DNA of 42,561 nucleotides, from the UHGV virus genome UHGV-0163196. One strand, given 5' to 3'. Position numbers and translations under genes: made by a program. This DNA comes from a virus. Below the pieces are notes generated by a model. It saw only the letters and a list, made by a program, of their open reading frames with translations, was not told the origin of the DNA and did not search any database. The number at the start of each line of letters is the position of its first letter. The first letter of the stretch is position 1. Positions 4,332 to 33,424 of the stretch are shown here, in pieces.

Positions 4332-4341
4332 GGCACCCTCT

Positions 4342-4386
4342 CTGTACATGTACAGATTAGTGCATAATAAAAACGCGAGATCAACG
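4342..4386 (-). promoter_or_regulatory. Putative phd-doc promoter with palindromic operator
   Basis: Perfect 14-bp palindrome CTGTACATGTACAG at 4342-4355 directly upstream of the phd start; -10-like CATAAT (minus strand) at 4363-4368 and TTGATC at 4381-4386. Confidence 0.4.
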
Positions 4387-4413
4387 ATTATTGATGTTTA
4401 AGGATGCGGATCA

Positions 4414-11029: not shown

Positions 11030-11032
11030 AGT

Positions 11033-14737: not shown

Positions 14738-14969
14738 CCGGTACAGGAATGCAAGGCTATTATTTAATCACCTGAAATATAAGGGTTTATTTGCAGTCTG
14801 ATTTTGCGTGTAGTCCATAGGCTGCTCTGTGATGTATGTCGCTGAATGGGGTAAGTTACTCAATAACAGATCTGTAGGATTTACAGGGGATTTCAATATG
14901 CAAGCTGTGCCACCAGCCCATTAGCGAACGGCGCTATTTTCCGCGCGTGACGTGTCACGGCGCTGGTGG

Positions 14970-15443
14970 TTATCCCATGAATTTGCGGTATACCTCCCCG
15001 GCTTCTTCGGCGGTTAGGTTCGTTGTTTCCGTTCTGATCGGACCACCATCCTTACCCGTTGTTTCAACCTTTAATTTGTTGGTGTAAGCGTCCCCGCACT
15101 CTTTCGCGGCCTGTTCGATAAGCTGTGCTGTTAATGCGTAATTCTTGATTGCCTCTGCACGGTTCGCCATGCGATCGAGCATACGCAGCCGGTACGCTTT
15201 GTTAGCGATAGGGATATCGGATATTTCACTCTGGAAGCGGGCGCGAGTGTGATTAAAGAGTTCTACCCATTTTTGGCTAAGATTTTTAGCCATTGTATTT
15301 TCAGGGTTGTAGGCCGATATCTGTTGCCGGGTAACAACGATGCCAAAATCTTGTTTTACAAGTTCGACGATTCTGGAAGGGGGTTCATAGCAAGCTAATG
15401 ATTGAATAATCATAACCTTAGCCATTGTTGGTAATGCCGCCAT
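14970..15443 (-). CDS. Small terminase-like protein (Sf6 gp1-like; candidate packaging-redirection factor)
   Basis: 157 aa; C-terminus KLKVETTGKDGGPIRTETTNLTAEEA resembles the Sf6 gp1 terminus (…VGKDGGAIQIETSP…); lies far from terL, inside the island. Confidence 0.55.
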   Translation of the reverse strand: MAALPTMAKVMIIQSLACYEPPSRIVELVKQDFGIVVTRQQISAYNPENTMAKNLSQKWVELFNHTRARFQSEISDIPIANKAYRLRMLDRMANRAEAIKNYALTAQLIEQAAKECGDAYTNKLKVETTGKDGGPIRTETTNLTAEEAGEVYRKFMG

Positions 15444-15535
15444 TGTTCACCTTTTGACAAAGGAAATAAAAGTAGCGTGCTGAGTTCTGCCCCTGCACCG
15501 CTACTTAAAGTTACAGATCACGTCATGGGTAGCTA

Positions 15536-16108
15536 TCACTCGCTCTCCAGATCCTCAAGAGAGAAGCAAATATGCTGTGTTGAAACAAAATAGCTCAGCA
15601 TGCTGCTTACCTTGTTTGACGCGACGTAATTATAATGCTCGACCATCTTTGCTAACGCGATAATCTCCCACCAGTAATGCTTAACTAGCTTTAGCGAAAT
15701 TAAATAAGCCCGGCTATAGAGCTTGTCGCAATCATCTCCTGTTGCGCCTTGGTTCCTGTATTGCTCAAGCACTTTCCGAATATCGCTGGCGTCTCCTTTC
15801 CCTCCATTTTCCAGTAGTTTTTCAGGTGGTTCGCCTGAGTAAAGGTGTTGTGCCATTACGCCAGAAAAAGAGACGACCATCTGCGCCAGTTCATCTTTTC
15901 TGACGGGGAGATGTGAGCATACCGCCCGGCAATTATCGACCTCTTTGCCGTTAGCCAGTCGAGCAATACGAAACTCATCAGCAATAGATATCTCAATTTG
16001 CCTAGCACCCGTAAACCACGCAGCCATCGCGTGACCGGCTTCATGGATCGCGATATTTCTGTCCCACATAGGGCTTTTGCTGAATTCAACAATTACGCCA
16101 TCACTCAC
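15536..16108 (-). CDS. Standalone HExxH zinc metallopeptidase-like protein
   Basis: 190 aa with the motif IAIHEAGHAMAAW (HEAGH, as in FtsH/M41 and ImmA-like peptidases) and no ATPase domain. Confidence 0.5.
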   Translation of the reverse strand: MSDGVIVEFSKSPMWDRNIAIHEAGHAMAAWFTGARQIEISIADEFRIARLANGKEVDNCRAVCSHLPVRKDELAQMVVSFSGVMAQHLYSGEPPEKLLENGGKGDASDIRKVLEQYRNQGATGDDCDKLYSRAYLISLKLVKHYWWEIIALAKMVEHYNYVASNKVSSMLSYFVSTQHICFSLEDLESE

Positions 16109-16170
16109 GCTGCTTACTCTCCGTTAGATCTGTCATTTAGTTAAATTGAACTGCGTTGGGGGAGTCTCCA

Positions 16171-16350
16171 TCACACACTCCCTTCAACTGCTATTGATTC
16201 CAGCGCCTTAGCCACCAGCCCACGAGCAATTTGATGGACAGACGGCGCGACGCCAATATCGGAGCGCTGGCGTTCGCGCTCCTGGATCTTGCAGATTGCG
16301 GCGAACTGGTCGCCAGAGAGTAATACCGGCTTAACGTTTGGCTTTTTCAT
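16171..16350 (-). CDS. Small hypothetical protein (59 aa)
   Basis: Internal start MKKPNVKPVLLSG… of the 112 aa track ORF; the other reading would overlap the upstream 64 aa gene. Confidence 0.3.
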   Translation of the reverse strand: MKKPNVKPVLLSGDQFAAICKIQERERQRSDIGVAPSVHQIARGLVAKALESIAVEGSV

Positions 16351-16525
16351 CCTGTTCACTCCAGAACTTTGCATTCGCTTCGTTGACTTTTTCCAGATTG
16401 CGGCATTCGTTGTTGAAGTTGTTGCGCATCCGCAATTGCTCGGCCTGTTCACGGCCAAAGAGTTTACGCCCGGCGCTTTGCGGGTTTCCTGCAGCCAATT
16501 TCGGGTCATAAATAGCCATGCTCAT
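16331..16525 (-). CDS. Small basic hypothetical protein (64 aa)
   Basis: ATG preceded by AAGGAG with good spacing; lysine/glutamate-rich and probably helical. Confidence 0.4.
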   Translation of the reverse strand: MSMAIYDPKLAAGNPQSAGRKLFGREQAEQLRMRNNFNNECRNLEKVNEANAKFWSEQDEKAKR

Positions 16526-16531
16526 TGCTCC

Positions 16532-17095
16532 TTACTTCGTGCGATGCCAGAAACTGGCGTTATCGGTGTTAATGCTGCGAATGGCGTCGCCTGTGGAGAG
16601 AATCTTCGGTGAAACGTTGTTAACTCGCATGTAGTCGCCAACCTGCTCCAGAACGTCGATAGCCTGATCAAGCTGAATCTCTGATAGCGGGGTCGGATGT
16701 ACCGCACTGAATGCCTCAGCGGGTGCGTAACGCAGCACATCAAGCGCAACAAGGCGAGGATCGGTATCAGGAAGGGCGTTGTCATACTTTGGTGCTACAG
16801 CGCGTACCAGGCGCATAAATTCAGCGTCCATTGCCGTTGGTGCGGTAGAGGTGGGAGAAGCGCCGCTGCCACTACGTGTAATCATGTCACTATCGCGGGT
16901 GTACATCCGGCGCAAGCGGTCTCCGGTTGCAATGCGTGTTGCACGTTCCTGCTTAAGCGTCGTTGCAAGATTCGCAATGACGAGAGCCACAGGAAGCGAG
17001 CAGGTCAGCCTTTCGAACGTATCATCGGAGTAAGTCACCTCGACGGTACCACCAGCGTTATCACTTTCCAGATTAACATTGGTTATCTGTTTCAT
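16532..17095 (-). CDS. Hypothetical protein (187 aa), first gene of the island's left module
   Basis: ORF following a promoter-like AT-rich region at 17100-17250; no recognisable motif. Confidence 0.45.
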   Translation of the reverse strand: MKQITNVNLESDNAGGTVEVTYSDDTFERLTCSLPVALVIANLATTLKQERATRIATGDRLRRMYTRDSDMITRSGSGASPTSTAPTAMDAEFMRLVRAVAPKYDNALPDTDPRLVALDVLRYAPAEAFSAVHPTPLSEIQLDQAIDVLEQVGDYMRVNNVSPKILSTGDAIRSINTDNASFWHRTK

Positions 17096-17378
17096 TGTTC
17101 ATAACCTTTTGCGTTGTTTAAATTCTGATCATTGCATAAATTGCAACATTAGTAAATATCATTGCGCATATTGAAATGGCAAATCGACGTGATACTATGA
17201 CGGTGATCCACCATTGTGTGATTGCATAAACATGGTTATCAAAAGCCCTCGCCTCTCCAGCGCGGGCTTTTTCTTTTCCGCTCCGCAAAGTTGCCGTTTC
17301 CGCATACTTTCACTTAGGCGACGCCCCTCCAAATTCGTAATTACTCTCCGAAAAAACTCTATAGATAAGCAAAAACAT

Positions 17379-17675
17379 GTTGGTTCAGTTGGTTCAGTTG
17401 GTTCAATTTGTAAAGATTGTTGTTTTATAAGGATTATTTCTTTCAGAGTGAACCAACAAAGCCCCGTTTTGAACCAACAAACGCTATTTTCGTGTTGGTT
17501 CAGTGGGAAAGATTTACAGGCCAGCCAGAAAAAGGCGTTGGTTCAATAGCGGCATTTGTTGGTTCAAAATGGGCGTTTGTTGGTTCGGTGTTGGTTCACT
17601 TACAAGCATGTAAATGCATTAAATACATACACTTATATTAATTAAATAGTTACTGAACCAACTGAACCAACAAAA
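17379..17675. repeat. Iteron cluster: candidate satellite replication origin
   Basis: At least 12 copies of the core TTGGTTCA in both orientations (for example 17379-17405 tandem, 17449-17457, 17470-17478, 17494-17502, 17654-17670), interspersed with AT-rich DNA, immediately downstream of the primase-helicase gene. Confidence 0.7.
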
Positions 17676-17696
17676 AAACATCTCGTATGTGTGTTT

Positions 17697-20477
17697 TTAT
17701 TCTTCACCCTCCATCTCGTCGGGTCGTAGCTGGAGCACATAAACGTTTATCTGGCGTCCATCAATTCGCGGGGATTTACGCTGATACCCCCTTCCGCTGG
17801 CTGGCGGTTTCAGCACCCCAGCCCCGGCCAGCACACGGGCAAACTGTTTCGCGTTGAATCCCTTCGCAATCTCACCTTCGAATGCTGCCGGGAACGTGTA
17901 GAACACTATCGGATCAGCATCATGCGCCCCTTTCTGACGGTACCCGGCCAAATCCCGAATCGGCATGTCAGCCGGGTCATAAGGGTAAGGTGCAAATCGG
18001 CTCAGTCCGTATGCATTAAGAAACGCCTCTGCCTGCTCGATGATCTGCTTATGCTCACGGTTCCCCGTGCCAAACTCTTTCACCCAGGCGTTAAAGCCAT
18101 GCTGGATGGCGTCCCGGCTTTCCTGCTCCCCCCAGCCAGTGACAGGCATCCCAAGCACCAGCGCCGCCTCCAGAATGGCGAACCGCTCGCCTACACGATG
18201 AACCTGTTCGCCATAATCAGCGGGGATAAGACTGCGCCAGCGCTCTTGCGCCGCTCTGACAGCTTGTTTTGCCTCCTGCTGGTGGCCTGCAAGCCATTTA
18301 ATCCATTCACGGCCTGCGGCTCCGTGGTTCGTCTGGTAAGCCTCTTTGAGTGCGTCGGCGTGTTGCTTCCCGTTCTGGTACTCATGGTGCGTTACTGATT
18401 TCTCCATCGGTAAATTAAGCAGCCGCACCAGTTGTCCGGCCTTAACTTTCAGCCCACCAGCAGAAAGAAACGTCTCAATGTCCATTTCCCCGGTACTGAT
18501 CGCCACGGTACGCCAGCGCTTTAACTCGCGGTTGCCTCCCTCCTTCGCCCCCTGTAGCTTTCCGGCACCGTTAAACAGCGTGTAAGCTGACGTGGCAACG
18601 TCTTTGGCGCTACTGCCCTGCCCCACTTCGTCCAGCGGTAACAGGCTATCGTTATGCGCTTCCGCTTCGTTGGCGATACCCAGCGCAGTACCGTACCAGG
18701 TGAGGCGCAGGGCATCCGGTTCACCGTATAAACTGCTGGCAATGTTGGCGGTCGTTGTCTTCCCTGCGCTGGACTGTTCGAAAAGGTGAACACCGAAACC
18801 GTCAGCGCCAACAAGCCCGATCAGCGGTGCAGACAGCGCAGCCGCAACACCCAGCATCATTGACGGGTTTCCCAACGCAAGACGCGCCACCGAATCACGC
18901 CAGCTTTCCGGCGTTCCACTGACGGTATAGCCACCAGCCGCCGCACTGCGGCCACTGAATAAAAGCGGTATCTCTGGATCACCAATAACATCACCATCCG
19001 GCATGATGTACGCCCCGCTGTGCCAGCCTGTGGTGTGGCTGATCTGCCACTCCTTGCCGCTACCGGTTCGCTGTAGCCAGTCGGCCAGAATTGCCCGCAA
19101 CGATGGTTTGGTCGTCACACTGACACCGCCGTTTTTCAGAGTTCGCCATCCCTCGCGGTCGCCAATGTCCTCCCAAGGAAGCGCACGGGTAACTTGCCCC
19201 CGATTGCCGGGAACGTCCCAACGCAGGATCAGAAAGCGCTGTCTGGCGTTATCACTCCCCGCACCAGCAATCTCCAGCGGAGAGCATAGCCACGCCTCGG
19301 TATTGATAATTTCCCCTGTGTCTTTGTCCACTTTCGGGGTGATCCAGTGAATGCCATCCGAACGGCTCTCTACTCGCGGTTTAAGGTCGTCGTCGATACC
19401 AGGGCTTTTTTTGCCGCCGTCGATTGCTGTCAGTGTCGCACCCACTTTCTTACCCTCCGGTTGATACATTGAGTCGTTAAATGCTGCTGTGGCCGCTTCG
19501 AGGCCGTATTGCTGGTGGTAGTCGTTCCAGTCCGCTTTATAGTCCACTGGTGGCATGGAAACCCAGCCAGAAACGGCTTTCGCGGCTTTCTCTGCGGCCT
19601 CCTTGCCAGTGTTAACTTTCACTCCTTTAATTCCGTCACTTTCGCCCATCTGGTCGTTATCTGCGGCAATGATGATTTGTGCCTGTGGGTACTTCCGGCG
19701 CATCACTTCGGCAACGGGTAGCAGGTTGCCCGCGTCAATTGCTGCCACTGCCAGCGCGTCCGGGCGCATCAGGTGAACTGAAAGGGCCGTCGCCAGCCCC
19801 TCGGCAATTAAAACGCTCTGCGGCGATTCTGGCGCGTTTACGGCATGATATGCCCCGCGCTTTGCTGAACCTGTCAGGAGTCGCTTCTCTCCCTGCGGTG
19901 TAATGGTTTGCGCTGCTGCCACTGCGCCGGATTCGTCCACCAGCTCCAGCAATAACGAACCATCAGGCATAACCGGATAGTTAAACCCGGTCAGCCCTTT
20001 TGATTGCAGGTAATCAGATTCGCCCTGTGTGGCACTCTGGCGCATTCCGGCATACAGACGGGCAAACGTAGCCCTTCGCTGCTCTGCGTCCCCTGCTGCC
20101 TGTTTCTGGCGCTCCTGCTCACGCTGCTGGCGGTCAGCTTCCAGTTGCTCCCTTCTATGGCTCGCTGCCACCGGGTCGGATTGCGCTGCCAGGTAATCAA
20201 TACCCAGCACGTCAGCGGCAAGCTGTGCCGCCTCCGTAGTGTCGCAGTTGTTAACCCGCTTGATTAAATCCAGCCCGTCACCAGCGCCACACTGGTTGCA
20301 GATAAAGCTACCGCGCCCGTTGTCGTCGAATCTGAAACGGTCTTTTCCACCACATGCAGGGCATGGAGAATGGCGGCGCGATGAATCAGGCACGTCGATA
20401 GACAACCCAGCCAGCACATAAGGCCAGCGCCCTGCTGCGGCGCTGGTCACTTCGCGGATAAGGTCGATATTACGCAT
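17697..20477 (-). CDS. P4 alpha-like primase-helicase (zinc-ribbon, TOPRIM, D5-like helicase)
   Basis: Zinc ribbon CPACGG…CNQCG, TOPRIM-like IIIAADNDQ, Walker A SSAGKTTT; ~925 aa. Start taken at MRNIDLIRE. Confidence 0.85.
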   Translation of the reverse strand: MRNIDLIREVTSAAAGRWPYVLAGLSIDVPDSSRRHSPCPACGGKDRFRFDDNGRGSFICNQCGAGDGLDLIKRVNNCDTTEAAQLAADVLGIDYLAAQSDPVAASHRREQLEADRQQREQERQKQAAGDAEQRRATFARLYAGMRQSATQGESDYLQSKGLTGFNYPVMPDGSLLLELVDESGAVAAAQTITPQGEKRLLTGSAKRGAYHAVNAPESPQSVLIAEGLATALSVHLMRPDALAVAAIDAGNLLPVAEVMRRKYPQAQIIIAADNDQMGESDGIKGVKVNTGKEAAEKAAKAVSGWVSMPPVDYKADWNDYHQQYGLEAATAAFNDSMYQPEGKKVGATLTAIDGGKKSPGIDDDLKPRVESRSDGIHWITPKVDKDTGEIINTEAWLCSPLEIAGAGSDNARQRFLILRWDVPGNRGQVTRALPWEDIGDREGWRTLKNGGVSVTTKPSLRAILADWLQRTGSGKEWQISHTTGWHSGAYIMPDGDVIGDPEIPLLFSGRSAAAGGYTVSGTPESWRDSVARLALGNPSMMLGVAAALSAPLIGLVGADGFGVHLFEQSSAGKTTTANIASSLYGEPDALRLTWYGTALGIANEAEAHNDSLLPLDEVGQGSSAKDVATSAYTLFNGAGKLQGAKEGGNRELKRWRTVAISTGEMDIETFLSAGGLKVKAGQLVRLLNLPMEKSVTHHEYQNGKQHADALKEAYQTNHGAAGREWIKWLAGHQQEAKQAVRAAQERWRSLIPADYGEQVHRVGERFAILEAALVLGMPVTGWGEQESRDAIQHGFNAWVKEFGTGNREHKQIIEQAEAFLNAYGLSRFAPYPYDPADMPIRDLAGYRQKGAHDADPIVFYTFPAAFEGEIAKGFNAKQFARVLAGAGVLKPPASGRGYQRKSPRIDGRQINVYVLQLRPDEMEGEE

Positions 20478-20811
20478 GGTTGCCTCCTGCCACGGTCGCG
20501 CCCATATCATTAATCATGCTTTGCCATATCTCGCGCCCGACGTCAGTCAATCCGTCCTTAGTGACGCAACGATCAAGAAGCTCGATCCCCACGGTTTCCC
20601 ACTGCGGGTAGAACACTTTCATGGCTGCCAGTGTGTAGCTATCGATCAGGCTGCGAACGCCTTTTACTCCATTGACGATTTCCACACGGACGGCGAGGCC
20701 GTCCGCATCAACCATGAAATAGTCCCCGCCGCTGGTGGCGGTAATGTGGTTATACAGTGCCGACGCATACTTATTCGCCAGCGCATTCAGTCGGAAATTT
20801 TTAGTAATCAT
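20470..20811 (-). CDS. Hypothetical protein (113 aa)
   Basis: ORF coupled to the primase start; no recognisable motif. Confidence 0.45.
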   Translation of the reverse strand: MITKNFRLNALANKYASALYNHITATSGGDYFMVDADGLAVRVEIVNGVKGVRSLIDSYTLAAMKVFYPQWETVGIELLDRCVTKDGLTDVGREIWQSMINDMGATVAGGNHA

Positions 20812-20820
20812 GTCGCCCCC

Positions 20821-21447
20821 TCAGTGCGCCAGCGGCATTTCAGGCCAGCCGTTTTCATCCAGTTCAGCTATAAAGCTGTTGTGAAGTTCAGCAAGCGTTT
20901 CACGCCCGAACGGGGTCAACTCGCCGCGCTCCGTGTCCAGCATGGCCTGATAAAAAACAATGGCGTTCGCCGTTCCCTGCTCAATGCCGTAGCGCTCAAT
21001 CATTGCGCCCTCGATGTTGTTCGCCATCGCCAGCCGTTCAGCAAACGGGTAAACCACCATGCCCGCATTACCATTGGAGTAAATCGCCACCTGCGATGAT
21101 GTGCCGTCAGCCTCAGTAACCGTGGTGGTGCCGTTCTCGCGCTTCATCTCAGAAACGAACGTCGCAGCAATCAGCCAGCGCCACATAGTGACGTTATGCT
21201 GCGCGGTGAAGTCGAACCAGCCACGCGCCCCGCCATCAGCAACGGCAAAATGAATGGCGTAGCCGATATCGGGCGTATCGTCGTACTCTCCCGCATCCAG
21301 ACGGCTTACAGCGCTCTCATAGGTGATAATGGCTACATGCTCATACATCCCGGCATCGTTGCGGGTCATGATATTGACGCCGTGCGGTGTGGCTTCGGCG
21401 TGGAACAGGTCGGGATTTCCCGGTTTAATGGTCAGTATATTGCTCAT
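20821..21447 (-). CDS. Hypothetical protein (208 aa)
   Basis: ORF in the island's early operon; no recognisable motif. Confidence 0.45.
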   Translation of the reverse strand: MSNILTIKPGNPDLFHAEATPHGVNIMTRNDAGMYEHVAIITYESAVSRLDAGEYDDTPDIGYAIHFAVADGGARGWFDFTAQHNVTMWRWLIAATFVSEMKRENGTTTVTEADGTSSQVAIYSNGNAGMVVYPFAERLAMANNIEGAMIERYGIEQGTANAIVFYQAMLDTERGELTPFGRETLAELHNSFIAELDENGWPEMPLAH

Positions 21448-21665
21448 GCTTTGCCCTCCCGATATTCACGCATTACATGGTCAGCTAGCTTGCTTTCAGC
21501 CTCGCTCATTGCTTCGGGCACACCGTGTAACAGCGTCAGAATGGAACCTATAAGGCGTGGTAAATCGGGATCTGTTTTATTGGTGGTGCTCTCCAGCCAC
21601 ATGGACAAAACAGCCTGTGCCTGTTCAATCTGGCAGGCAGCATCAATCAGTTGTAACTGGCTCAT
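21444..21665 (-). CDS. Hypothetical protein (73 aa)
   Basis: Small ORF overlapping its neighbours by 4 nt. Confidence 0.35.
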   Translation of the reverse strand: MSQLQLIDAACQIEQAQAVLSMWLESTTNKTDPDLPRLIGSILTLLHGVPEAMSEAESKLADHVMREYREGKA

Positions 21666-21925
21666 GCGCTGCCCTCCGCATCAATTCTGGCTATATCGAC
21701 AATCGTCAGGACTTTACTAAGCCAGCAATACGCGATGGCTGCTTGCTCAACTTCGAGGAGTGGTAATAAATCGGTCATAACGTGAGCCAGCCCATTGCGG
21801 GCGCGGGTCATGCGTTCTGCGGTACGCTCTGCCAGCGTGAAAGAGTCAGGGTACGGCTGTTCGCGGGATAGCATCGCCTCGGCCTCAAGATCTGCAGGAT
21901 GGCGATAGATGGTATGAATGTTCAC
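21662..21925 (-). CDS. Hypothetical protein (87 aa; GTG start or internal Met)
   Basis: ORF in series with the neighbouring small genes; start codon uncertain. Confidence 0.35.
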   Translation of the reverse strand: MNIHTIYRHPADLEAEAMLSREQPYPDSFTLAERTAERMTRARNGLAHVMTDLLPLLEVEQAAIAYCWLSKVLTIVDIARIDAEGSA

Positions 21926-22101
21926 GCTGCCACCTCCTGAATACGAGTAATACGAACGTGCTTATAACCGCCTTTATTCGCCAGTAGTTGCGCAGTCGAT
22001 TTAGCTGTTTCTGGACTGGTGCTAGTCATGGTGTAGTGAATGCCGACGGTGTTACCGCGCTTGTTAACAGCGTATCCGTCGATCTGGAAGGTTTTACGCA
22101 T
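21922..22101 (-). CDS. Small hypothetical protein (59 aa)
   Basis: Hand-translated MRKTFQIDGYAVNKRGNTVGIHYTMTSTSPETAKSTAQLLANKGGYKHVRITRIQEVAA; below the ORF track length cut-off. Confidence 0.3.
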   Translation of the reverse strand: MRKTFQIDGYAVNKRGNTVGIHYTMTSTSPETAKSTAQLLANKGGYKHVRITRIQEVAA

Positions 22102-22972
22102 TTCCGACCTCCATTGCTAAACGGGACTGGATAGCTGCCGCTTTACTGCCTAATTGCAGGTAAGTACGAGTTATCGCAGGGTTGCTATGACCCAGCATTT
22201 CAGAGGCCACTAATAGGCCCTGTTCGCCACCTGCGGACATGAGGTTAAAGGCGGCTATTTTGCGGCTTGAGTAGGCGCTCAGGCGCAATTTAGCGTTAAT
22301 GAAACGGGTAAACCACGCCATGACGCCATGAAGTTTGCGCCAGATGGTTTGGCGAGTAACGCTACCTTCCAGACGTTGACAACGGTTACTTTCGATTTGA
22401 GAGCGGGAAAATACCAGGTCGTCCTCCACCAGATTCCGATCCTGACGGTCACGCAGCCGCTTGATAATGCCGGGGGGTAACTGTTTGGTGTCGTGCTTGA
22501 CGTCAGCCTTAGCCACCAGCCCGAACACAATCGCCTGTTCTTCGTCGTTCATATCGGCGGCCAGTTCATCACAGCCGATACTATCCCACTTCATGTAGGC
22601 GATATGGTCAGCGGCGAGCCGCGCGGCGTCCTTGCGCTGCTGGCGCACAATTTCAATACCTTTGCGGGTTGCCCGCGCTTCTGCGGCTTTGGTCTGTTTG
22701 GAAACGATAATTGTCGCCTGTCCAGTTTCCCAATTGATGCAGGAATAGCGCAGGTTGCAAACGTCGCTGGTACGCCAGCCGGTTACGGTCGCAATATCCC
22801 ACCAGAGCAACACCCAATCGGGCTGTGTCTGCTGGATGCGCTCGCGTAGCTTGCGCTGCTCGTCACGGTCATAGACAGGGGTCATGGTGCGACTGCCCTT
22901 TGTGCTCGCCGCTTTAACGACATTGCCGCGCAGCTCGCGGGCTTTGGCTGTCAGAGTCTGGAGGTTAAACAT
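22094..22972 (-). CDS. Second tyrosine recombinase (short phage-integrase family, no arm-binding N-domain)
   Basis: About 292 aa from MFNLQTLTAKAREL; C-terminal LGHSNPAITRTYLQ with a candidate catalytic Tyr and conserved Arg/His positions. Confidence 0.65.
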   Translation of the reverse strand: MFNLQTLTAKARELRGNVVKAASTKGSRTMTPVYDRDEQRKLRERIQQTQPDWVLLWWDIATVTGWRTSDVCNLRYSCINWETGQATIIVSKQTKAAEARATRKGIEIVRQQRKDAARLAADHIAYMKWDSIGCDELAADMNDEEQAIVFGLVAKADVKHDTKQLPPGIIKRLRDRQDRNLVEDDLVFSRSQIESNRCQRLEGSVTRQTIWRKLHGVMAWFTRFINAKLRLSAYSSRKIAAFNLMSAGGEQGLLVASEMLGHSNPAITRTYLQLGSKAAAIQSRLAMEVGNA

Positions 22973-23153
22973 GACGCACCTCCGGCACTGGCAGACGTGC
23001 GGCCAGAGACAAAATAAAGTGCGGCGCAAGGATGCGGCGGGCTTCGCGTTCGGTCGCAGCCTCAACGGACAGACGGCAAGGTTTGGCTTTTTTATCGTGG
23101 CGATTCAGCGCGAGAAAGCGCCAGGTGAATTTTGAGTGTGCGGATCTAGCCAT
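22965..23153 (-). CDS. Small protein (possibly Icd/Ash-like)
   Basis: 62 aa, MARSAHSKFTWRFLALNRHDKKAKPCRLSVEA…; recalled resemblance to small Icd-like prophage proteins only. Confidence 0.35.
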   Translation of the reverse strand: MARSAHSKFTWRFLALNRHDKKAKPCRLSVEAATEREARRILAPHFILSLAARLPVPEVRHV

Positions 23154-23473
23154 TTTTAGCGGCTCCTAGAACATATTGAAGGAGTCTCGCCAGATGCTGC
23201 TAAACATGGGTGGCGAGACGTGACGGGGTTAGCAGACTGGCGTTCTAGGAAACCAGCAGGCGTTAAGCCTCCCCACCACGCCCCGCCATAAATCGGGGGT
23301 ATGGTTGGTTTTCGGGCGTAAAAATACCGCTATACGGAAATCAGCGGCTACCCGCTAGAACGTTCAGGCTGCTAAACCCGGCACCCGTTTTGTGAGGTGC
23401 GAAATAATCATAACCACACTACCCCGTTAAGCGCAAGGGAAATATCCCCTGCGCCCACAATGCAAACTTGTGA
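23154..23473. promoter_or_regulatory. Repeat-rich intergenic region (candidate recombinase/regulator binding sites)
   Basis: Motifs CTAGAAC and GCTGCTAAAC recur in direct and inverted orientation at 23161-23205, 23227-23250 and 23353-23377. Confidence 0.4.
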
Positions 23474-24544
23474 TTAGTACCCGCGAGAAGCGTAAACTCG
23501 TGCCATGCCAGCCCAATGAGAGAAAAGAATTTCCCACTTAATTGGGTTGTAGGTAATACTTCCATCGACTGCGGCAGCATTCCATGCCCGATCAGAAATA
23601 GAGCTATCTTTAGCAGTTTTCCCCCATTCAACAATATCCCTTGCTAAAGCCTGTACACATGCTCGACTGACTACCTTTTCGTCAACGTACGCCCCAACAT
23701 CAGAGCATGACTCCATACTCATGTTCAGGCTATTTTTAAGGGACTCCAGCCCGGCCACTGACATAAAGCGACGACCATTAGCGTATGCAACACCGTCATT
23801 CCTGATAGTGAACTTAACAGTGTGGAATGCGTCAACAATCATCCGCTGCTCTGGCGTCGGGTTCTGCCATAGCACAAGGTTAATCTCTCTCTCAGAAGCT
23901 ATTGATTCTGCTTTCTCACGCTTAACTCGTGCATCCCGTTCTGCCTGGTATTGTTTTTGATTTTCATCATGAGCCTTTTGGTAACTAGAGGCTAATGCGT
24001 CTCTGTTTTTGGCAAATGCTGCAATGCTATTTTTGAAATCGCTTCTGCTAACCTTGTTTAACCCCATACTCCAGCGGTCATTTTCGTAATCATCATAAAT
24101 GGCATCAACTTTTGCCGGATTACTCAGCACAGTCGCCAGATTAACCGGAATTTTAGCCATCTCGTCACTGATTCTCGCTACATGTTCGAAAGTCGATATA
24201 GAGCCAACTTCATGACTCCCATACTCATGATAAGCGGCATAAAAAATTGGAATAGATTGAGGTTTTTCGTTCACTGACTTAATGATGCTTTTTTCATCAC
24301 ATGACTGTTCACCCCATTTGAAAACACTTTTCCCACCATTTTTGTATGTGTTGCAATCATCAATACCCAAACGAACCAGCGCATCCCATCCGGGCCGTTT
24401 CTTGTAATCCTCGCTCTTGACAACATGCATTGTGGTTAGGGCTTTCGCAGGATCTAACTTGCCAGCGGTACAAGACACGATAGGAAAGGCCAGAGAAGCG
24501 CAGGCTGCTATCCTGAAAAGGCTCGTCAATCTTTCTTTTTTCAT
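23474..24544 (-). CDS. Lipoprotein of unknown function (island cargo)
   Basis: 356 aa; N-terminus MKKERLTSLFRIAACASLAFPIVSC carries a signal peptide with lipobox-like Cys; AT-richer than its surroundings; flanked by ~0.3 and ~0.9 kb non-coding DNA. Confidence 0.6.
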   Translation of the reverse strand: MKKERLTSLFRIAACASLAFPIVSCTAGKLDPAKALTTMHVVKSEDYKKRPGWDALVRLGIDDCNTYKNGGKSVFKWGEQSCDEKSIIKSVNEKPQSIPIFYAAYHEYGSHEVGSISTFEHVARISDEMAKIPVNLATVLSNPAKVDAIYDDYENDRWSMGLNKVSRSDFKNSIAAFAKNRDALASSYQKAHDENQKQYQAERDARVKREKAESIASEREINLVLWQNPTPEQRMIVDAFHTVKFTIRNDGVAYANGRRFMSVAGLESLKNSLNMSMESCSDVGAYVDEKVVSRACVQALARDIVEWGKTAKDSSISDRAWNAAAVDGSITYNPIKWEILFSHWAGMARVYASRGY

Positions 24545-24708
24545 CGTCCTAATGCTCTTTCAAACCAAGAATGTAGGACATAGTAAATTGTGGTTAATGG
24601 CAAGTCGATATAAAGGCCGGGTTATTGGCTTCGGTGCCAATATCATTTCTCCGAAATTTCATAACGCCTGTAATCGCTCGTTTCCCCATCTTGGGGACAT
24701 TTCAAAAC

Positions 24709-24828
24709 TGCGAATCAAAGTGCGAATGGAACTGCGAATTCGCAAAGAGAGAGCGCCGCTCAAAGCAGGCCGGATAAGGCTTCGCGGACATATTGCGAAT
24801 GCGAATCCACCAGAAACGAAACGCGAAT
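24709..24828. repeat. GCGAAT repeat cluster including the palindrome TGCGAATTCGCA
   Basis: Six copies of (T)GCGAAT within 120 bp; the 12-bp palindrome at 24733-24744 also occurs twice in the helper terS gene. Confidence 0.55.
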
Positions 24829-25384
24829 CACCCATAAACAAAACCGATACGCAGGGAGCGTACTGCCCGTATTCAATCGGCCGAAAAGTCAGCCGATTAA
24901 AATCATGCCCGGCTATCCCCTGAAATTTCAGGAGATCGAGAGCCACCAGCAGAGAACCGTTCATGCCATCGGTAACTTGCAGCCCGAAGCTCAAATCTGA
25001 GCGTTGACCGCCAGCCAGAAGAAACCATTTTAAATCCCGCGCCTTCTCTTTGGATGAACAGGGTTACTCCCCGTAATGCTGTGAACTGCCACGATGATTC
25101 GGGGTTGTGTTGCGCTGGCCTTTGAGTCCCGCACAAACACTGACCCACAAAATTTTTGTAGGTGACTGGCCCTCTTGATGAGGTGCTGTTTTGCGTAACC
25201 CTTAATGAGTTGTGCAAAGGCTCAACCCTTCAAAAGGGTTGCCTAACCACCGGCGATAGTAATAACCGCCAACCTATGAACACTATGAACACCTTTGAGC
25301 ATTTTTCTATAAACATTCCACTACTGCCCTATTTGATGCCTTTCTCTGGCTGGCCTGTGTAAGTTACCGTTGCTGGGAACTGAC

Positions 25385-25420
25385 AATAAAAAAGGCTTGC
25401 CCCTCTCAGGTAACAAGCCT
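25385..25420 (-). terminator. Putative intrinsic terminator downstream of alpA
   Basis: Stem aggcttg/caagcct at 25393-25420 with a run of A on the plus strand at 25386-25392 (U-run on the minus transcript). Confidence 0.4.
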
Positions 25421-25438
25421 TGTCTATCGCTCTGGATC

Positions 25439-25651
25439 TCACTCACTACAGATTCCGCGCTTTTGGCTCTGTCTTCCGATCCACGCCTCCACCTCATCGC
25501 GATACCAGCAATTGCGGCCGCCAACTTTGAAGGGCATCGGAAAGCCGTTCCCCTCATCCTTCAGAAATTCATAGAACGCAGAATCAGAACGGTAGCGTAG
25601 ACGGGCTTTAACTTCGACTTTGAGCAAAATATCACTGTTAGATATGGACAT
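25439..25651 (-). CDS. alpA: AlpA-family transcriptional regulator/excisionase
   Basis: 70 aa with the typical AlpA pattern (…FPMPFKVGGRNCWYRDEVEAWI…), directly downstream of the integrase gene. Confidence 0.75.
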   Translation of the reverse strand: MSISNSDILLKVEVKARLRYRSDSAFYEFLKDEGNGFPMPFKVGGRNCWYRDEVEAWIGRQSQKRGICSE

Positions 25652-25793
25652 AAAAACCTCATTATATATTCGATATAATTATATATGATTTGAATAAAAA
25701 AAACGCATTCCGGTTAGCTTTGGGCATAAAAAAAGCTGGCTTAAAGCCAGCTATACCCGTTTGAAATCATGATTATCCAGAAATGGATGTGCC

Positions 25794-27023
25794 TTACACA
25801 ACCAGCCTCAAGCCCTTATCGCCGCTGGTCTCCAGTATTTCGCCACACTCTGCGGCCTCGATAAAGTCCCCCCACCATTGCATTAAAACCCGGCGTTTTT
25901 CCAGATAGTCGCTACGGTTATAAACATTTCGAATCGCATCGGCGCTTTTGTGAGCGAGTGCAGCCTCAATCACATCAGGGTTGAACCCCTCGTCATTTAA
26001 AACTGTAGATGCCAACGCCCTGAACCCATGAGGAACAATCAGCCCTTTAAACGACGTTTTGTGTATCCCGGCCTGAGTCGCACAGCGTGAGATCGGCTTA
26101 TTTTCTTTTCGCCATGAGGGGAAAACATAATCGCAGCGCTTCCACTTTTCGGCCTCTTTAAGCACGTTTATAGCCTGGCTCGATAATGGGACTACGTGGG
26201 GGCGCTTTCCTTTCATCCGGCTTGCAGGGATTTGCCAGATTGAGTTATCAAAATCAATCTCATTCCAGAGAGCGCCGCCAGCCTCCGAAGGCCGGACCAT
26301 CGTAATGATCTGGAATAATAATGCCAGCTTTGATGGCTCCCATAAGCTCAACTCGTTCCATGCGCTTAAAAATTCGGGCAACCGCTCTTTCTGTAAAGTC
26401 GCTCTTGGCTCGTTTTTTTCAGCCGGGAATGCTTTACCAATTTTCGATAGCGGGTTGTGCTCAATAACCCCAATGTTTACCGCATAATCCATTATGGCGT
26501 TGATGGTAATAACCATTTTCGTAAGCGTTGATGGCCTTTCCCTGAAAGGTTTAAAAGCCTGAATAGTATCGGCTGCGTTTATTTTATGTACCGTGGTATG
26601 CCTAAAAATCGTGGAAAGATGCTTCAACGTCACATTGTGCGATTCAAGCGTGTTGCTTCTCGCACCTTCTTTAATCTTGATTTTTAGCCATTCATCGGCA
26701 ACGGCCTGAAATGACTGCGCGTACATTTTACGCTGTTCATTCCTGGCATCTTTTTTGACTTCGTTCGGATCTATCCCTCGCGCTACCATACGGCGCAGTT
26801 TCGAACGTTCCTCCCTCGCTTCGGACAAAGTAAACTCCGGGTATCGTCCAATAGTATAGGTTTGTCTCTTCTTCGTTACCGGGTGTACATACCGAAAACG
26901 CCATGACTTACCGCCCCGGCTTGTGATGTAAAGCAACAAACCGAAACCATCGTGCAAACTGAAATCCTTGCCCTGTGCCTTCGCGCTTTTCACTTCGACG
27001 CTAGTTAGTGGCCTAACAATCAT
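25794..27023 (-). CDS. int: P4-type tyrosine integrase
   Basis: 409 aa; N-terminal arm-binding domain typical of P4-like integrases (…DGFGLLLYITSRGGKSWRFRY…) and a C-terminal catalytic domain. Confidence 0.85.
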   Translation of the reverse strand: MIVRPLTSVEVKSAKAQGKDFSLHDGFGLLLYITSRGGKSWRFRYVHPVTKKRQTYTIGRYPEFTLSEAREERSKLRRMVARGIDPNEVKKDARNEQRKMYAQSFQAVADEWLKIKIKEGARSNTLESHNVTLKHLSTIFRHTTVHKINAADTIQAFKPFRERPSTLTKMVITINAIMDYAVNIGVIEHNPLSKIGKAFPAEKNEPRATLQKERLPEFLSAWNELSLWEPSKLALLFQIITMVRPSEAGGALWNEIDFDNSIWQIPASRMKGKRPHVVPLSSQAINVLKEAEKWKRCDYVFPSWRKENKPISRCATQAGIHKTSFKGLIVPHGFRALASTVLNDEGFNPDVIEAALAHKSADAIRNVYNRSDYLEKRRVLMQWWGDFIEAAECGEILETSGDKGLRLVV

Positions 27024-27237
27024 TCAACACCTCTCTGGCTACCATGTAATGCAAACGGCGCATGATTCTCTTTCTAGTCCCTCATGTACCGAATCAAAGC
27101 GAAATCCGGCGAATAAATCCGCACATGTTCGGAGTGTCATTTTTATGGTTCAGGCCAGTAACGCCGTATGATTCCGAACGATAACGCACTGATTAATAGA
27201 TATTAGTTGCATAAGGTACAGATATGCAGTCATTGGA

Positions 27238-30564: not shown

Positions 30565-31967
30565 CAGGCTTGCCTCCCGAGCAATTCCCAAATATCCATT
30601 GTTGTATCGGTCGGCGCGAACGCCATTATGAAAGCGTCGGCAATGTTAGGTGAGGGGATATCGCGCTTAGCCAAATCTTTCTTGCTTTCAACCATAACCC
30701 TACCGTTACGATCAAAGTCTCGGTGCGGGGTCGTCAGCTCAAGCTTTAGTTTCTCCAGGTGCGGGCACGATGAATCGATACTTATCAACTCATCAACAGG
30801 ATATTCCTCTCCATTTTTCACCGCGTTGAACGTATTACGAAAGCGATCAGCTACCAGCCACCATGCCTGGGCTTTCAGATTGGCAAAGAAGTCTTTATTC
30901 GGAATGCCGTTATATTCAGAATCTGGCTCGTTCACACCAGCGCCAGCATTGAAGCGTTGATAATTAACTGGTCGTGAATAAGGATTTTCACGTCGTCTGT
31001 CTTCGTTAATTTCCGAGAATTTAGCACCAGCAGAAGCGCCAACACCAATGGAGTCATAAACGATATCAGCACTTCTCTCTGTGGCTGCCTGATATGCCCG
31101 CTGGCAGCTTTTAAGAAGCTCGTCTTCTTTTGCCTTCCATTCATCAGCCCAATACACAACGGAGCCATGACGATAAACATTGGAGCACTTATCCGCACCG
31201 CTATCGGCAACGTCGAAGCCTATTCGCTTTCGTCCGTTTGGCTCAAAACCAAGCACCTTATGGGCATCTATTGCAGCCTCAATCCACGAAAGTTTAATAA
31301 TTGCCGCGTCATCATCAGATTCGGGAACCCCCATATAAACGTGGTCAAACCCCTCCGGATCACGACGCTTTGCAGCCGAGATAACCTTAAGCATGGTGTC
31401 TGAGAGGAATGGGTTTTCGTCGTAATTGATTTTTCTCACCAACGTATCTTCTGGTGGATCAACAACGAAATTACGCCATACAAAGTCAGTCACCAGACCA
31501 GGGTTAAAAATAAACCAGCATTCAGATCCGCTTTTACGAATGGTTGGTTCCAGTATCTTCCACTGGTATTCCGTTAGTGCATGGGCTTCTTCAAGCCACA
31601 AAACGCTGATACCTTCCAGGGATTTAATTTCTTCGATATTGCGCCATAAACCGTAAAACACGAATTCTGAGCCAGTGACCCGGTTGATAATTTTATTATT
31701 CAGAATTCGGAAGCGATGCCGCAGCCCAAACCGTTCAATCTGTATTTTGAGCAGGGTATAAACCGACTCTTCGATTTTGTTCTGAATTTGACGTGCGCAA
31801 CAGAAACGCAGGTTGTATTTATTTGCCAGAAAGACAGCAAACCCAGCAGCATCCCATGACTTTGACGATGAGCGCCCACCAAAAAGTACTTTATTTCGAG
31901 CCTGTGTCGTCCAGAAGTTCCTTAGGGCCGGATTCAGGGTCGGTTTGGATGTCAGAGTAGAAGTCAT
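30564..31967 (-). CDS. terL: Terminase large subunit (start uncertain)
   Basis: ATPase plus nuclease architecture (…VLFGGRSSSKSWDAAG…, …VLWLEEAH…); overlaps the 3' end of terS. Confidence 0.8.
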   Translation of the reverse strand: MTSTLTSKPTLNPALRNFWTTQARNKVLFGGRSSSKSWDAAGFAVFLANKYNLRFCCARQIQNKIEESVYTLLKIQIERFGLRHRFRILNNKIINRVTGSEFVFYGLWRNIEEIKSLEGISVLWLEEAHALTEYQWKILEPTIRKSGSECWFIFNPGLVTDFVWRNFVVDPPEDTLVRKINYDENPFLSDTMLKVISAAKRRDPEGFDHVYMGVPESDDDAAIIKLSWIEAAIDAHKVLGFEPNGRKRIGFDVADSGADKCSNVYRHGSVVYWADEWKAKEDELLKSCQRAYQAATERSADIVYDSIGVGASAGAKFSEINEDRRRENPYSRPVNYQRFNAGAGVNEPDSEYNGIPNKDFFANLKAQAWWLVADRFRNTFNAVKNGEEYPVDELISIDSSCPHLEKLKLELTTPHRDFDRNGRVMVESKKDLAKRDIPSPNIADAFIMAFAPTDTTMDIWELLGRQA

Positions 31968-32646
31968 TAAGGTCACGATCTCCATTACCGTCATCAACGC
32001 CAGCATCACGACGAAGGCGATCCGCTTCCAGAGACACTTTGTCAGTGGAGGCGAGCCGATGCTCTATAGATGCCTTTGTGAATTCCAGCGACTCAATGCG
32101 GGCCGTGTTACGGTGCATGGCTTTTTGCGCAGATGAAATTAGCTCGTGAAGATTATTGGCGGTATCGCCATCAGCTATTTCAAGCTCAGTCTGCCAGCGG
32201 CCAATATTTTCAGCAGCGGTAAGGTTCGCCGCACGCAACCAGAAAAGCTCATCATCAAGAGTGAGCGCCTGAGCATCCTCGGTAATGGCATCAGATAGAA
32301 GCATTCGGCGTCCATAGCCACCATGCTTCAATGCGTTCTGATTTCCGGGTCTGGAATTATAATGAGCGCGTTTCGTTTCTGGTGAGTTTGATGGTTTTGC
32401 GACTTCGCAGTTATCCACTAAGCCCGCTGGTGGCTTACTCTTTGCCACTTTCTCCTTTTGCGAATTCGCAGTTTTATTCGCACTTTTCTTTTGCGAATTC
32501 GCACTACCATTCGCAATTTTGATATAGCGCTTTGCAGTCGAGTAATTCAGTCCCTGCGCTTCACACCATTCTTTGGGGGAAATGCCGGTTTTGGCATGTT
32601 CGGACAGGAACCGTTGCTGAAGCTCGCCCCAGTCCGGCTTTGCCAT
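31891..32646 (-). CDS. terS: Terminase small subunit (HTH N-terminus)
   Basis: 251 aa directly upstream of terL; N-terminal HTH-like segment (ISPKEWCEAQGLNYSTAKRYI); contains palindromic DNA repeats. Confidence 0.55.
   Translation of the reverse strand: MAKPDWGELQQRFLSEHAKTGISPKEWCEAQGLNYSTAKRYIKIANGSANSQKKSANKTANSQKEKVAKSKPPAGLVDNCEVAKPSNSPETKRAHYNSRPGNQNALKHGGYGRRMLLSDAITEDAQALTLDDELFWLRAANLTAAENIGRWQTELEIADGDTANNLHELISSAQKAMHRNTARIESLEFTKASIEHRLASTDKVSLEADRLRRDAGVDDGNGDRDLNDFYSDIQTDPESGPKELLDDTGSK
32459..32516. repeat. Palindrome TGCGAATTCGCA x2 plus ATTCGCA half-sites inside terS (candidate pac/TerS recognition site)
   Basis: Full copies at 32459-32470 and 32492-32503, half-sites at 32476-32483 and 32508-32516; encodes the repeated peptide ANSQK. 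Confidence 0.4.
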
Positions 32647-32702: not shown

Positions 32703-32888
32703 TCAGTCCCGGACGAACGTAACCTTTGTGGTTATCATTCGCCGCACAAGGCGCGCTACTTCGCGTTGCATTTCATCAATTACTTTTGGCGTCAGTGGTT
32801 GATGCGCATATTTACGCTCAATCTCTGCAAAAATCCCGTTCAGCACCTCGCTGTCTGGTGGGATAACTTCAACGTTTAATCGTGCCAT
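32703..32888 (-). CDS. Small hypothetical protein (61 aa)
   Basis: Internal start MARLNVEVIPPDSEVLNG… of the 90 aa track ORF; lies between the spanin genes and terS. Confidence 0.3.
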   Translation of the reverse strand: MARLNVEVIPPDSEVLNGIFAEIERKYAHQPLTPKVIDEMQREVARLVRRMITTKVTFVRD

Positions 32889-33147
32889 CGGTTTGTCCTG
32901 CCCTGTTGTTCTCGAAAATCCTGATATCAGCCTTATCCCTGTTGCACTGCGCCAGCGCTGACAGCAATGCGACATTCAGGTCAAGACTTGCTCCCCACGT
33001 AAACGGGTCGGGTAAGTCTGGCTGGGGTGTTTCAGCCGTCAGGTTGGCTGGTAACGGAACCACCGGAACTGGAACGTAGACCGTTCGCGTAGTCGTGCAG
33101 CCGCTTAACTGCGCCAGAAGGCACAAAACGAACAGCACAATCATCAT
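32869..33147 (-). CDS. Rz1-like o-spanin lipoprotein (overlapping Rz in another frame)
   Basis: Internal start MMIVLFVLCLLAQLSGC with a lipobox, proline-rich mature region; begins inside Rz and extends past its stop. Confidence 0.5.
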   Translation of the reverse strand: MMIVLFVLCLLAQLSGCTTTRTVYVPVPVVPLPANLTAETPQPDLPDPFTWGASLDLNVALLSALAQCNRDKADIRIFENNRAGQTDGTIKR

Positions 33148-33424
33148 CCGCAACAGCAGCCTTGATATCGTTCTCGGTTCTCTGTGACTCCAGTGTGATC
33201 TGCTGTTTTGCATGCTGGTTAGCCTCCAGAACTGTATTGACGATTTGCAGTGATTGCAGGACGTTATTGGTAATGACAGTTGCCGATTTGGCATTTTGTA
33301 CAGCCTCATCAGCACGTTTCTTTTCGTGCTGATATTTGCTGTAGTAGTGGTTGGCAGACCAGATGAAAGAACCGATGACAGTAAAGAAGAATGCAGCGAT
33401 AACCAGCTTATATCTCAGCTTCAT
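33032..33424 (-). CDS. Rz-like i-spanin
   Basis: 130 aa with an N-terminal transmembrane segment ([17 protein letters not shown]) and helical periplasmic domain, directly after the endolysin gene. Confidence 0.6.
   Translation of the reverse strand: MKLRYKLVIAAFFFTVIGSFIWSANHYYSKYQHEKKRADEAVQNAKSATVITNNVLQSLQIVNTVLEANQHAKQQITLESQRTENDIKAAVADDDCAVRFVPSGAVKRLHDYANGLRSSSGGSVTSQPDG

Follow-up and report, generated by a model that had tools for sequence, protein, structure and literature searches.

A gene for a predicted two-domain lipoprotein as optional cargo of a helper-embedded phage satellite

Background

Outer-membrane lipoproteins such as Llp of phage T5 and Cor of phages phi80, N15 and HK022 block FhuA-dependent superinfection, and the genes for such exclusion lipoproteins adjoin tail or receptor-binding genes, as do llp in T5 and cor in phi80 and N15. 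Other exclusion proteins act on the tail itself: Sp of phage T4 inhibits the gp5 tail lysozyme, and Ltp of Streptococcus phage TP-J34 is a lipoprotein that binds the tape-measure protein. Defence hotspots in P4-like satellites as well as phage-inducible chromosomal islands (PICIs) were reportedly described in 2022 by Rousset and colleagues and by Fillol-Salom and colleagues. Here we describe a predicted lipoprotein of 356 amino acids encoded by a satellite within the virus genome UHGV-0163196, all 42,561 nucleotides of which were analyzed and are referred to below as the window.

The lipoprotein resembles Llp and Cor in being phage-borne, in carrying a lipobox with an outer-membrane-type residue at position +2, in being an optional moron, and in the placement of its phage relatives near tail or receptor-binding genes. 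However, Llp and Cor have only about 60 to 80 amino acids, compared with 356 in two domains here, they share no sequence or fold similarity with this protein, and the present family is mainly satellite-borne. With T4 Sp, P1 Sim and TP-J34 Ltp it would share an action in the periplasm or wall zone directed against the tail tip, and it is, like Ltp, predicted to be lipid-anchored and modular. Homology to these three proteins was not detected, however, and the proposed mechanism derives from gene position and localization.

The closest described elements are the helper-embedded PICIs reported in 2023 by Tommasini, Mageeney and Williams (PMC10111431). The satellite in the window has the same int and alpA genes, dynamic zone with a C4/isrK RNA, primase with an adjacent iteron-containing replication origin, late zone, and co-oriented insertion among helper late genes. 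In contrast, the lipoprotein gene occupies the zone that in PMC10111431 is filled by DNA-binding proteins of the Bro network, and the insertion lies at the start of a capsid cement gene. The words lipoprotein, cargo, cement and decoration are absent from the text of that paper (its supplementary site list apart), and literature searches on satellite or prophage lipoproteins yielded nothing on this lipoprotein family.

The lipoprotein gene and its variable slot

The gene and the two reading frames that flank it are as follows.

23474 to 24544, minus strand: lipoprotein coding sequence, ATG start, 356 amino acids plus stop codon (from the list of open reading frames (ORFs), homologues and substitution ratios)
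25439 to 25651, minus strand: AlpA-like gene bounding the variable slot on its upstream side (weak match to Pfam Phage_AlpA; annotated as AlpA in sister islands)
22965 to 23153, minus strand: icd-like ORF that opens the operon under C4 control (as annotated by RefSeq in Escherichia coli ABWA45, where the region is 99.9% identical)

An earlier note on this DNA had described a 356-amino-acid ORF separated from its neighbors by about 320 and 890 base pairs and lower in GC than its surroundings. Coordinates and length were reproduced on the minus strand, and the gaps measure 320 nucleotides (23154-23473) to the icd-like ORF and 894 nucleotides (24545-25438) to the alpA-like ORF. The GC content of the gene is 44.7% (41.7% at third codon positions), which is below that of every neighbor: the shorter and longer gaps have 53.1% and 48.1%, int has 47.9%, and the icd, recombinase-like and primase genes have 55-58%, within an island of 51.1% overall. 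The ratio of nonsynonymous to synonymous substitution rates is 0.16 relative to the copies in E. coli ET791 and ECONIH5 and 0.09 relative to the Salmonella copy. Because of these low ratios, we conclude that the ORF is a genuine, functional gene under selection, far beyond a chance ORF.

The slot between alpA and the C4 RNA has different contents in related islands.

Window and E. coli ABWA45: lipoprotein gene alone
ET791, ECONIH5 and Salmonella: lipoprotein gene accompanied by a toxin-antitoxin pair (TumE/HVO_A0114) that is encoded on the opposite strand
EC2001: positions 23420-24661 of the window cleanly missing, both flanks conserved
Klebsiella helper-embedded PICI, with a different insertion site and primase type: lipoprotein gene in the same slot

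The lipoprotein gene is also absent from a further IMG/VR locus (L036). Since slot content varies, and since EC2001 lacks exactly the lipoprotein cassette, the gene is optional cargo, an independently acquired moron cassette. The earlier note had called it cargo and had proposed a survey of what occupies the slot in other satellites; the clean presence/absence difference from EC2001 and the addition of a toxin-antitoxin pair in three sister islands agree with that view, and in the islands compared here the slot held the lipoprotein gene alone, the gene with the pair, or neither (EC2001). The pairs in the sister islands also suggest that the slot behaves as an accessory or defence hotspot. In this respect it resembles the defence hotspots of P4-like satellites and PICIs, where conserved satellite genes enclose a fixed slot whose accessory genes differ from element to element and include toxin-antitoxin-like systems. 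However, the known cargo of those hotspots is a cytoplasmic abortive-infection system or nuclease, whereas here it would be an exported envelope protein that matches no defence model. The toxin-antitoxin pair, consisting of TumE (DUF6516) and an HVO_A0114-like protein, lies between alpA and the lipoprotein gene at 10941-11586 of locus L003, 10676-11321 of L004 and 8185-8830 of L005.

Two elements in the upstream gap bear on expression of the cassette.

24580 to 24608, minus strand: promoter-like TCGACT-17-TACTAT within a conserved cassette leader of about 80 nucleotides (candidate)
25386 to 25427, minus strand: terminator-like hairpin (inverted repeat I25) and T-run after alpA (from the repeat scan and the sequence)

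The leader is conserved in the window, ET791, Salmonella and Klebsiella with a constant spacing of 17 nucleotides; in Salmonella and Klebsiella the second hexamer is TAAGAT. It would provide the cassette with its own putative promoter. Since the terminator-like hairpin and T-run follow alpA, co-transcription of the cassette with that gene is not obvious.

The satellite is a probable helper-embedded PICI

14740 to 27228, minus strand: whole helper-embedded PICI, from the attL core (27215-27228) to the attR core (14740-14753) (from gene content, reconstruction of the att sites and comparison with PMC10111431)

The earlier note had placed the gene inside a satellite. By its gene content the carrying element is a satellite and, specifically, would be a helper-embedded PICI: it has an integrase and AlpA, an insertion among helper late genes, a primase with a replication origin, and a C4/isrK RNA. 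The island is 12.5 kb long, and over the lipoprotein region the window is 99.9% identical to E. coli ABWA45. Its genes follow the order int, alpA, lipoprotein, C4 RNA, icd-like ORF, recombinase-like gene, primase, iteron origin, a gene for a HEAGH-motif 'M41-like' protein, and a DUF2280 gene resembling the small terminase subunit gene (terS; product TerS). The int product has the domains of a PICI-type integrase (Pfam Arm-DNA-bind_3, Phage_int_M and Phage_integrase), and the primase is of the Zn-ribbon/Toprim/DUF927 type. The helper is a prophage of the E217/Pam3 structural type, and all island genes lie on the strand of the helper late genes.

The insertion falls within the first codons of the helper capsid cement gene (14255-14737; type of E217 gp24 and Pam3 gp6). 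When the att flanks are joined, they give the cement-protein N-terminus MTAFLYRMPVGIAGAISRP (MTAFLYRMPVGIAG...). The Klebsiella homologue, whose gene is uninterrupted, has the matching sequence MGNTFLYRMPAGIAGAISRP. Because the joined flanks rebuild this N-terminus, the island splits the ribosome-binding site and first codons of the cement gene from the remainder. No exact att direct repeats of at least 10 nucleotides were found; the att core is imperfect and was identified by reconstruction. The same configuration occurs in five independent composites. Four genomes of E. coli and one of Salmonella share the cement site, and the island is present in only 4 of 5426 complete E. coli genomes. The cement-gene site may lie outside the 14 sites listed in PMC10111431.

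Predicted features of the protein

24470 to 24544, minus strand: signal peptide and lipobox (amino acids 1-25, IVSC) with Cys25 as the predicted acylated residue (from an alignment of 35 sequences)
23897 to 24427, minus strand: N-terminal helical domain (amino acids 40-216; from the alignment, an AlphaFold2 model and fusion of the same domain to another partner in relative P0048)
23477 to 23890, minus strand: C-terminal alpha/beta domain (amino acids 219-356) with invariant C280 and C296, the most broadly conserved part of the family

The N-terminus, MKKERLTSLFRIAACASLAFPIVSC, combines a basic n-region with a hydrophobic core and has I-V-S-C as its lipobox, which fits the pattern [LVI][ASTVI][GAS]C. 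All 35 aligned homologues have a lipobox, with variants such as IVAC, LTGC and ISGC, and Cys25 is invariant among them, as expected from the previous description of the gene product as a lipoprotein. The residue following this cysteine is Thr here and T, V, E, A or S across the 35 sequences, but never Asp. Lipoproteins with a residue other than Asp after the lipobox cysteine are sorted by the Lol system to the outer membrane, and outer-membrane sorting is therefore expected for this protein with Thr at +2. We infer the lipid modification as well as the localization.

The signal peptide is the sole hydrophobic segment of the 356-amino-acid protein and leaves a mature protein of 332 amino acids in two domains. 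AlphaFold2 modeled the full length as two domains with a pLDDT of 82 and a pTM of 0.56. The N-terminal domain has the invariant cysteines C64 and C82, the motifs YKKRPGW and FYAAYHEYG, and a terminal helix of approximately 36 residues (181-216). In the C-terminal domain, C280 and C296 are invariant in 31 of the 31 sequences of a wide alignment. Each domain thus probably forms one disulfide (C64/C82 and C280/C296), as periplasmic proteins should have.

A small family without a solved structural relative

The earlier note had called the gene an orphan with no recognisable family. The first term does not hold, as the protein belongs to a small clade whose representatives at 50% identity number only 49 in a set of 1.8 billion proteins, an extent on which word-indexed and exhaustive hidden Markov model searches agree. 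We found 41 homologue clusters at 37-94% identity, and every named source belongs to the Enterobacterales.

The second term stands for Pfam, PHROGs, NCBIfam, PADLOC and a profile search of the PDB. In Pfam nothing rose above noise for the lipoprotein (best match 120_Rick_ant, E = 0.08), and there was no meaningful PHROG match. Searches of Pfam, PHROGs, NCBIfam and PADLOC with the full protein, the C-terminal domain and ten distant relatives gave nothing except Sel1/TPR repeats in the chimeric relative P0069, and these repeats are also the only Pfam domains found in any family member. The PDB profile search produced only coiled-coil noise. Among the predicted viral structures of BFVD the sole real match was an uncharacterised protein of 324 amino acids. 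It is almost certainly gp56 of Pectobacterium phage ZF40, because the length is the same and a profile search for the family yields a member of 324 amino acids in that phage. The profile and structure searches that had been proposed as a check thus revealed no housekeeping or structural lipoprotein family. We conclude that this is a new protein family without a solved structural relative, found in a known kind of place, namely phage-satellite cargo.

The domains recur in other combinations. In short relatives a type I signal peptide is joined to the C-terminal domain alone, in many cases with a coiled coil behind it at the C-terminus, and Hafnia phage yong1 encodes a secreted 158-amino-acid version of this domain. 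In one relative Sel1 repeats take the place of the N-terminal domain. The C-terminal domain is the widely conserved core of the family. Conversely, P0048 has a lipoprotein-type N-terminal domain (41% identity) linked to another C-terminal domain, and the latter shares 66% identity with a protein of the helper itself.

4414 to 4758, minus strand: secreted helper protein of 114 amino acids (phrog_3443) in a moron slot after the baseplate hub gene; it replaces the lipoprotein C-terminal domain in P0048

A homologue search with this 114-amino-acid protein returned only 'hypothetical' names. The slot that it occupies is filled by members of the lipoprotein family at the equivalent position in a Photorhabdus prophage and in phage yong1. 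The helper slot as a whole (3511-4758) has a low GC content (45.1%) and contains a Phd/Doc toxin-antitoxin pair together with the phrog_3443 gene.

Readable genomic contexts place family genes in PICIs or helper-embedded PICIs (the window, L001, L003, L004, L005, L007, L013, L014, L015 and L016), and the remainder are tail modules of myophages, namely the Photorhabdus prophage (L006), Hafnia phage yong1 and ZF40. The contigs of distant relatives P0052 and P0066 are too short for an informative context. By these contexts the family is confined to satellites and to the tail modules of related phages. In the Photorhabdus prophage and yong1 the gene follows the hub gene E217_GP41, and gp56 of ZF40 lies between the tail chaperones and the lysozyme/tape-measure gene, directly upstream of the latter. 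The tape-measure proteins of the helper in the window and of yong1 carry SLT lytic-transglycosylase domains. In the window the helper tape-measure gene lies at 6796-8811, the hub gene at 4771-5865 and the spike gene at 2715-3452. In PICIs of Yersinia, Serratia and Dickeya and at the E. coli yicC locus, the family gene is in the late zone, 1-76 nucleotides after the HEAGH M41-like gene.

Possible functions of the lipoprotein

The best reading of the function of the lipoprotein is superinfection exclusion at the level of the cell envelope, a reading that is circumstantial and that we put forward tentatively, with rather less than even confidence. It is favored because of the predicted envelope localization, the moron slots in tail modules, the toxin-antitoxin neighbors in the satellite slot, and domain swapping of a kind expected from an arms race. 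A moron cassette that lies between alpA and the C4/icd locus of a helper-embedded PICI, within its variable zone, would supply a protein whose helical N-terminal domain, with its helix of about 36 residues, presents the compact, disulfide-stabilized C-terminal domain to the periplasm. The N-terminal domain would serve as anchor and spacer, and the C-terminal domain as the specificity or effector module. The protein could bind the tail-tip machinery, including the SLT-bearing tape measure, when an incoming myophage of the E217/ZF40 type sends it through the periplasm, or it could attach from the periplasmic side to an outer-membrane receptor, as does T5 Llp. Either interaction would block genome entry. 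This entire mechanism is one that we infer. A more specific proposal, which we consider doubtful, is that the proteins constitute a modular, new-fold family of periplasmic 'gatekeepers' of E217/ZF40-like temperate myophages and their embedded satellites, which would intercept the SLT-bearing tape-measure/tail-tip complex, block genome delivery, and acquire specificity through swaps of the C-terminal domain, including that with phrog_3443.

Several observations weigh against exclusion. No model of PADLOC-DB 2.0 matched the protein, the best E-value being 0.036 and confined to a coiled-coil stretch, and the Pfam families of Llp, Cor, TraT and Bor were likewise unmatched. At 356 amino acids the protein is four to five times the size of known outer-membrane exclusion lipoproteins. 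The candidate promoter at 24580-24608 is only a consensus-like match and was not called by a consensus promoter scan. The late-zone placement after the HEAGH gene in four PICIs would suit a role in the lytic cycle as well as in lysogeny. Moreover, exclusion of the phage type that serves as its helper would bring a satellite no obvious advantage, unless the satellite is already inside a helper.

An outer-membrane-type lipoprotein encoded by a low-GC moron with its own leader, in hosts that are animal- and plant-associated Enterobacterales, and without a match to defence models, would also be compatible with a factor for lysogenic conversion or host fitness that has no connection with phages. 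Such a factor might confer serum or complement resistance, adhesion, altered permeability or stress tolerance, comparable to Bor and Lom of lambda or plasmid TraT. We regard this as unlikely, however, since the protein resembles none of the families Bor, Lom and TraT, since the family is limited to satellites and the tail modules of one phage lineage and does not extend to diverse prophages or plasmids, and since the exchange of domains with another periplasmic domain from phages points to an arms race directed at phages. The probability of a lytic-cycle role appears lower still. The protein might modulate lysis as an accessory or inhibitor of spanins or endolysin, or mask receptors late in infection and so spare particles from adsorbing to debris; late receptor masking is a second role described for T5 Llp. 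The late-zone position after the M41-like gene in Yersinia, Serratia, Dickeya and one E. coli island is consistent with such a role, as are the phage copies within late tail operons and the co-orientation of the copy in the window with the helper late genes. However, the helper has a complete set of holin, endolysin and Rz/Rz1 genes, and the copy in the window is outside the late zone, behind a terminator and equipped with its own leader. The features of an Rz1-type o-spanin or a u-spanin were also not found: a second hydrophobic segment is absent, the gene is outside the lysis cassette, and the helper already has Rz/LysC at 32869-33315. The lack of a C-terminal membrane segment argues in particular against a unimolecular spanin.

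An inhibitor or immunity protein acting in the periplasm on a non-phage wall enzyme, such as a lysozyme of the host type or a peptidoglycan hydrolase from type VI or bacteriocin systems, would have precedents in MliC, PliC, Ivy and LprI. It seems improbable; comparison with the periplasmic lysozyme inhibitors MliC/PliC, Ivy, PliG and LprI/DUF1311 gave neither a profile match nor a shared fold. Finally, recurrence of the gene across PICI lineages with different integrases and primases would be expected if, rather than being cargo, it were central to the satellite life cycle, with a necessary part in exploiting the helper, in packaging or in transfer. We consider this very improbable, because the gene is missing from the otherwise collinear EC2001 island and from locus L036, because its position varies between zones, and because an exported lipoprotein cannot join capsid assembly or packaging in the cytoplasm.

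Of the layers of phage resistance, exclusion at the envelope has been explored least, with few known families and almost none that are periplasmic in Gram-negative bacteria. The present family offers a confident structural model without a solved relative, a natural presence/absence polymorphism and domain-swapped variants, and E. coli ABWA45, with a 99.9% identical copy, provides a defined helper/satellite pair for testing. If the lipoprotein does block entry, then helper-embedded satellites carry exported exclusion factors, and the family would give a handle on the passage of myophage tail tips through the periplasm. If it does not, the family still marks a phage/satellite lineage.

Noncoding flanks of the cassette

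The earlier note had described the gene as alone between stretches of noncoding DNA. In a functional sense this is incorrect, as an immunity-RNA locus lies downstream and conserved elements of the island backbone lie upstream.

23206 to 23400, minus strand: immunity-RNA locus, with an isrK/seqA-like target at 23320-23400 and a C4 antisense RNA at 23206-23293
23407 to 23436, minus strand: promoter-like TTGCGC-18-TATGAT just after the lipoprotein stop codon (candidate); EC2001 keeps the hexamers and spacing with a different spacer sequence

The match to the Rfam C4 model scores 75 bits (gathering score 45), that to isrK scores 44.6 bits, just below the gathering score of 50, and that to c4-a1b1 is weak. 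The C4 RNA and its upstream target have complementary arms at 23220-23239 and 23365-23384 (repeat I1). Because of these Rfam matches, the complementary arms and the promoter-like site, we assign the 320-nucleotide downstream gap to a C4/isrK immunity locus of the P4/P1 type belonging to the satellite. Homology with the cassette-less EC2001 island resumes at the promoter-like site (23407-23436).

The upstream gap is a mosaic consisting of the cassette leader of about 80 nucleotides, a backbone block of about 300 nucleotides, a shared stretch of about 460 nucleotides, and the alpA terminator. The shared stretch is common to ABWA45, where it carries a 276-nucleotide deletion, to the Klebsiella island and to PICIs at the fis locus.

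24920 to 25195, no strand assigned: stretch of 276 nucleotides deleted in E. coli ABWA45 and present in the window and the Klebsiella helper-embedded PICI

Part of this stretch is also found in the dynamic zones of other PICIs, namely those at the fis locus, between a Bro-like gene and icd. A tandem pair of GTGTTCATAG is located at 25274-25292, and the Klebsiella island expands the pair into an array around an AT-rich core. The possibility that the upstream gap is a replication origin was rejected, as an iteron-rich origin lies downstream of the primase and the GTGTTCATAG pair is not enriched in the window. The flanks had also been called repeat-rich. This is correct for an ATTCGCR array at 24709-24828 and for the complementarity between C4 and its target, which are genuine, while most of the other repeats in the repeat scan are of a size expected by chance.

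A repeat array shared with the helper terminase gene

24662 to 24962, no strand assigned: island backbone block with array, palindrome and hairpin, found in four E. coli sister islands including the one that lacks the lipoprotein
32459 to 32515, no strand assigned: helper copy of the TGCGAAT array, inside terS (31891-32646)

The backbone block is not present in the Salmonella and Klebsiella islands. It contains seven copies of ATTCGCR with 12-nucleotide phasing (24709-24828) and a perfect 12-base-pair palindrome, TGCGAATTCGCA (24733-24744). Only two clusters of TGCGAAT/ATTCGCA occur in the window, one in the noncoding DNA of the satellite and the other in helper terS, which was assigned by its match to phrog_370 (E = 1.7e-75). 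The palindrome and its one-mismatch variants number 4 in the window against 0.2 expected. Among IMG/VR sequences, the pattern TGCGAAT-N5-TGCGAATTCGCA is present in 74 contigs; 65 of the 74 matches are inside TerS homologues, and six of the nine others are in satellites of the helper-embedded PICI type described here. We therefore lean slightly toward the view that the block mimics the pac site of the helper. Correlation with terminase type is imperfect, however, as two islands keep the block in helpers with another TerS. With its copy in the satellite, the repeat array of helper terS offers a candidate pac site that lends itself to direct testing.

The block was also considered as a gene, since EC2001 has an annotated coding sequence of 128 amino acids here and the window has a TTG-initiated ORF of 111 amino acids (24659-24994). 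This candidate was rejected: the block is not coding because two islands, ET791 and ECONIH5, carry a 1-nucleotide indel inside it, and the supposed start overlaps the alpA terminator. A hairpin within the block, AATCGGCTGACTTTTCGGCCGATT (24875-24898), shows a compensatory change from T.G here to G-C in EC2001 and ECONIH5. It is followed by a second, terminator-like hairpin with a T-run, just upstream of the repeat array.

Other features of the island

A second, internal tyrosine-recombinase-like gene (22094-23065) overlaps the end of the icd-like ORF, lacks an arm-binding domain, and is present in all sister islands. Just downstream of the primase, at 17400-17690, there are at least 12 iterons of TGAACCAAC/GTTGGTTCA in both orientations around an AT-rich core, and this region is likely to be the satellite replication origin. 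The HEAGH-motif protein encoded at 15536-16108 is cytoplasmic, is annotated in RefSeq as belonging to the peptidase M41 family, and is conserved in the late zone of the satellites. The DUF2280 gene of the satellite itself lies at 14970-15443. In ECONIH5 a DUF2280 gene is located directly upstream of the helper large terminase gene. Because this helper gene has 72% DNA identity with the satellite copy, the satellite may combine the TerS of one helper type with the pac-like array of another.

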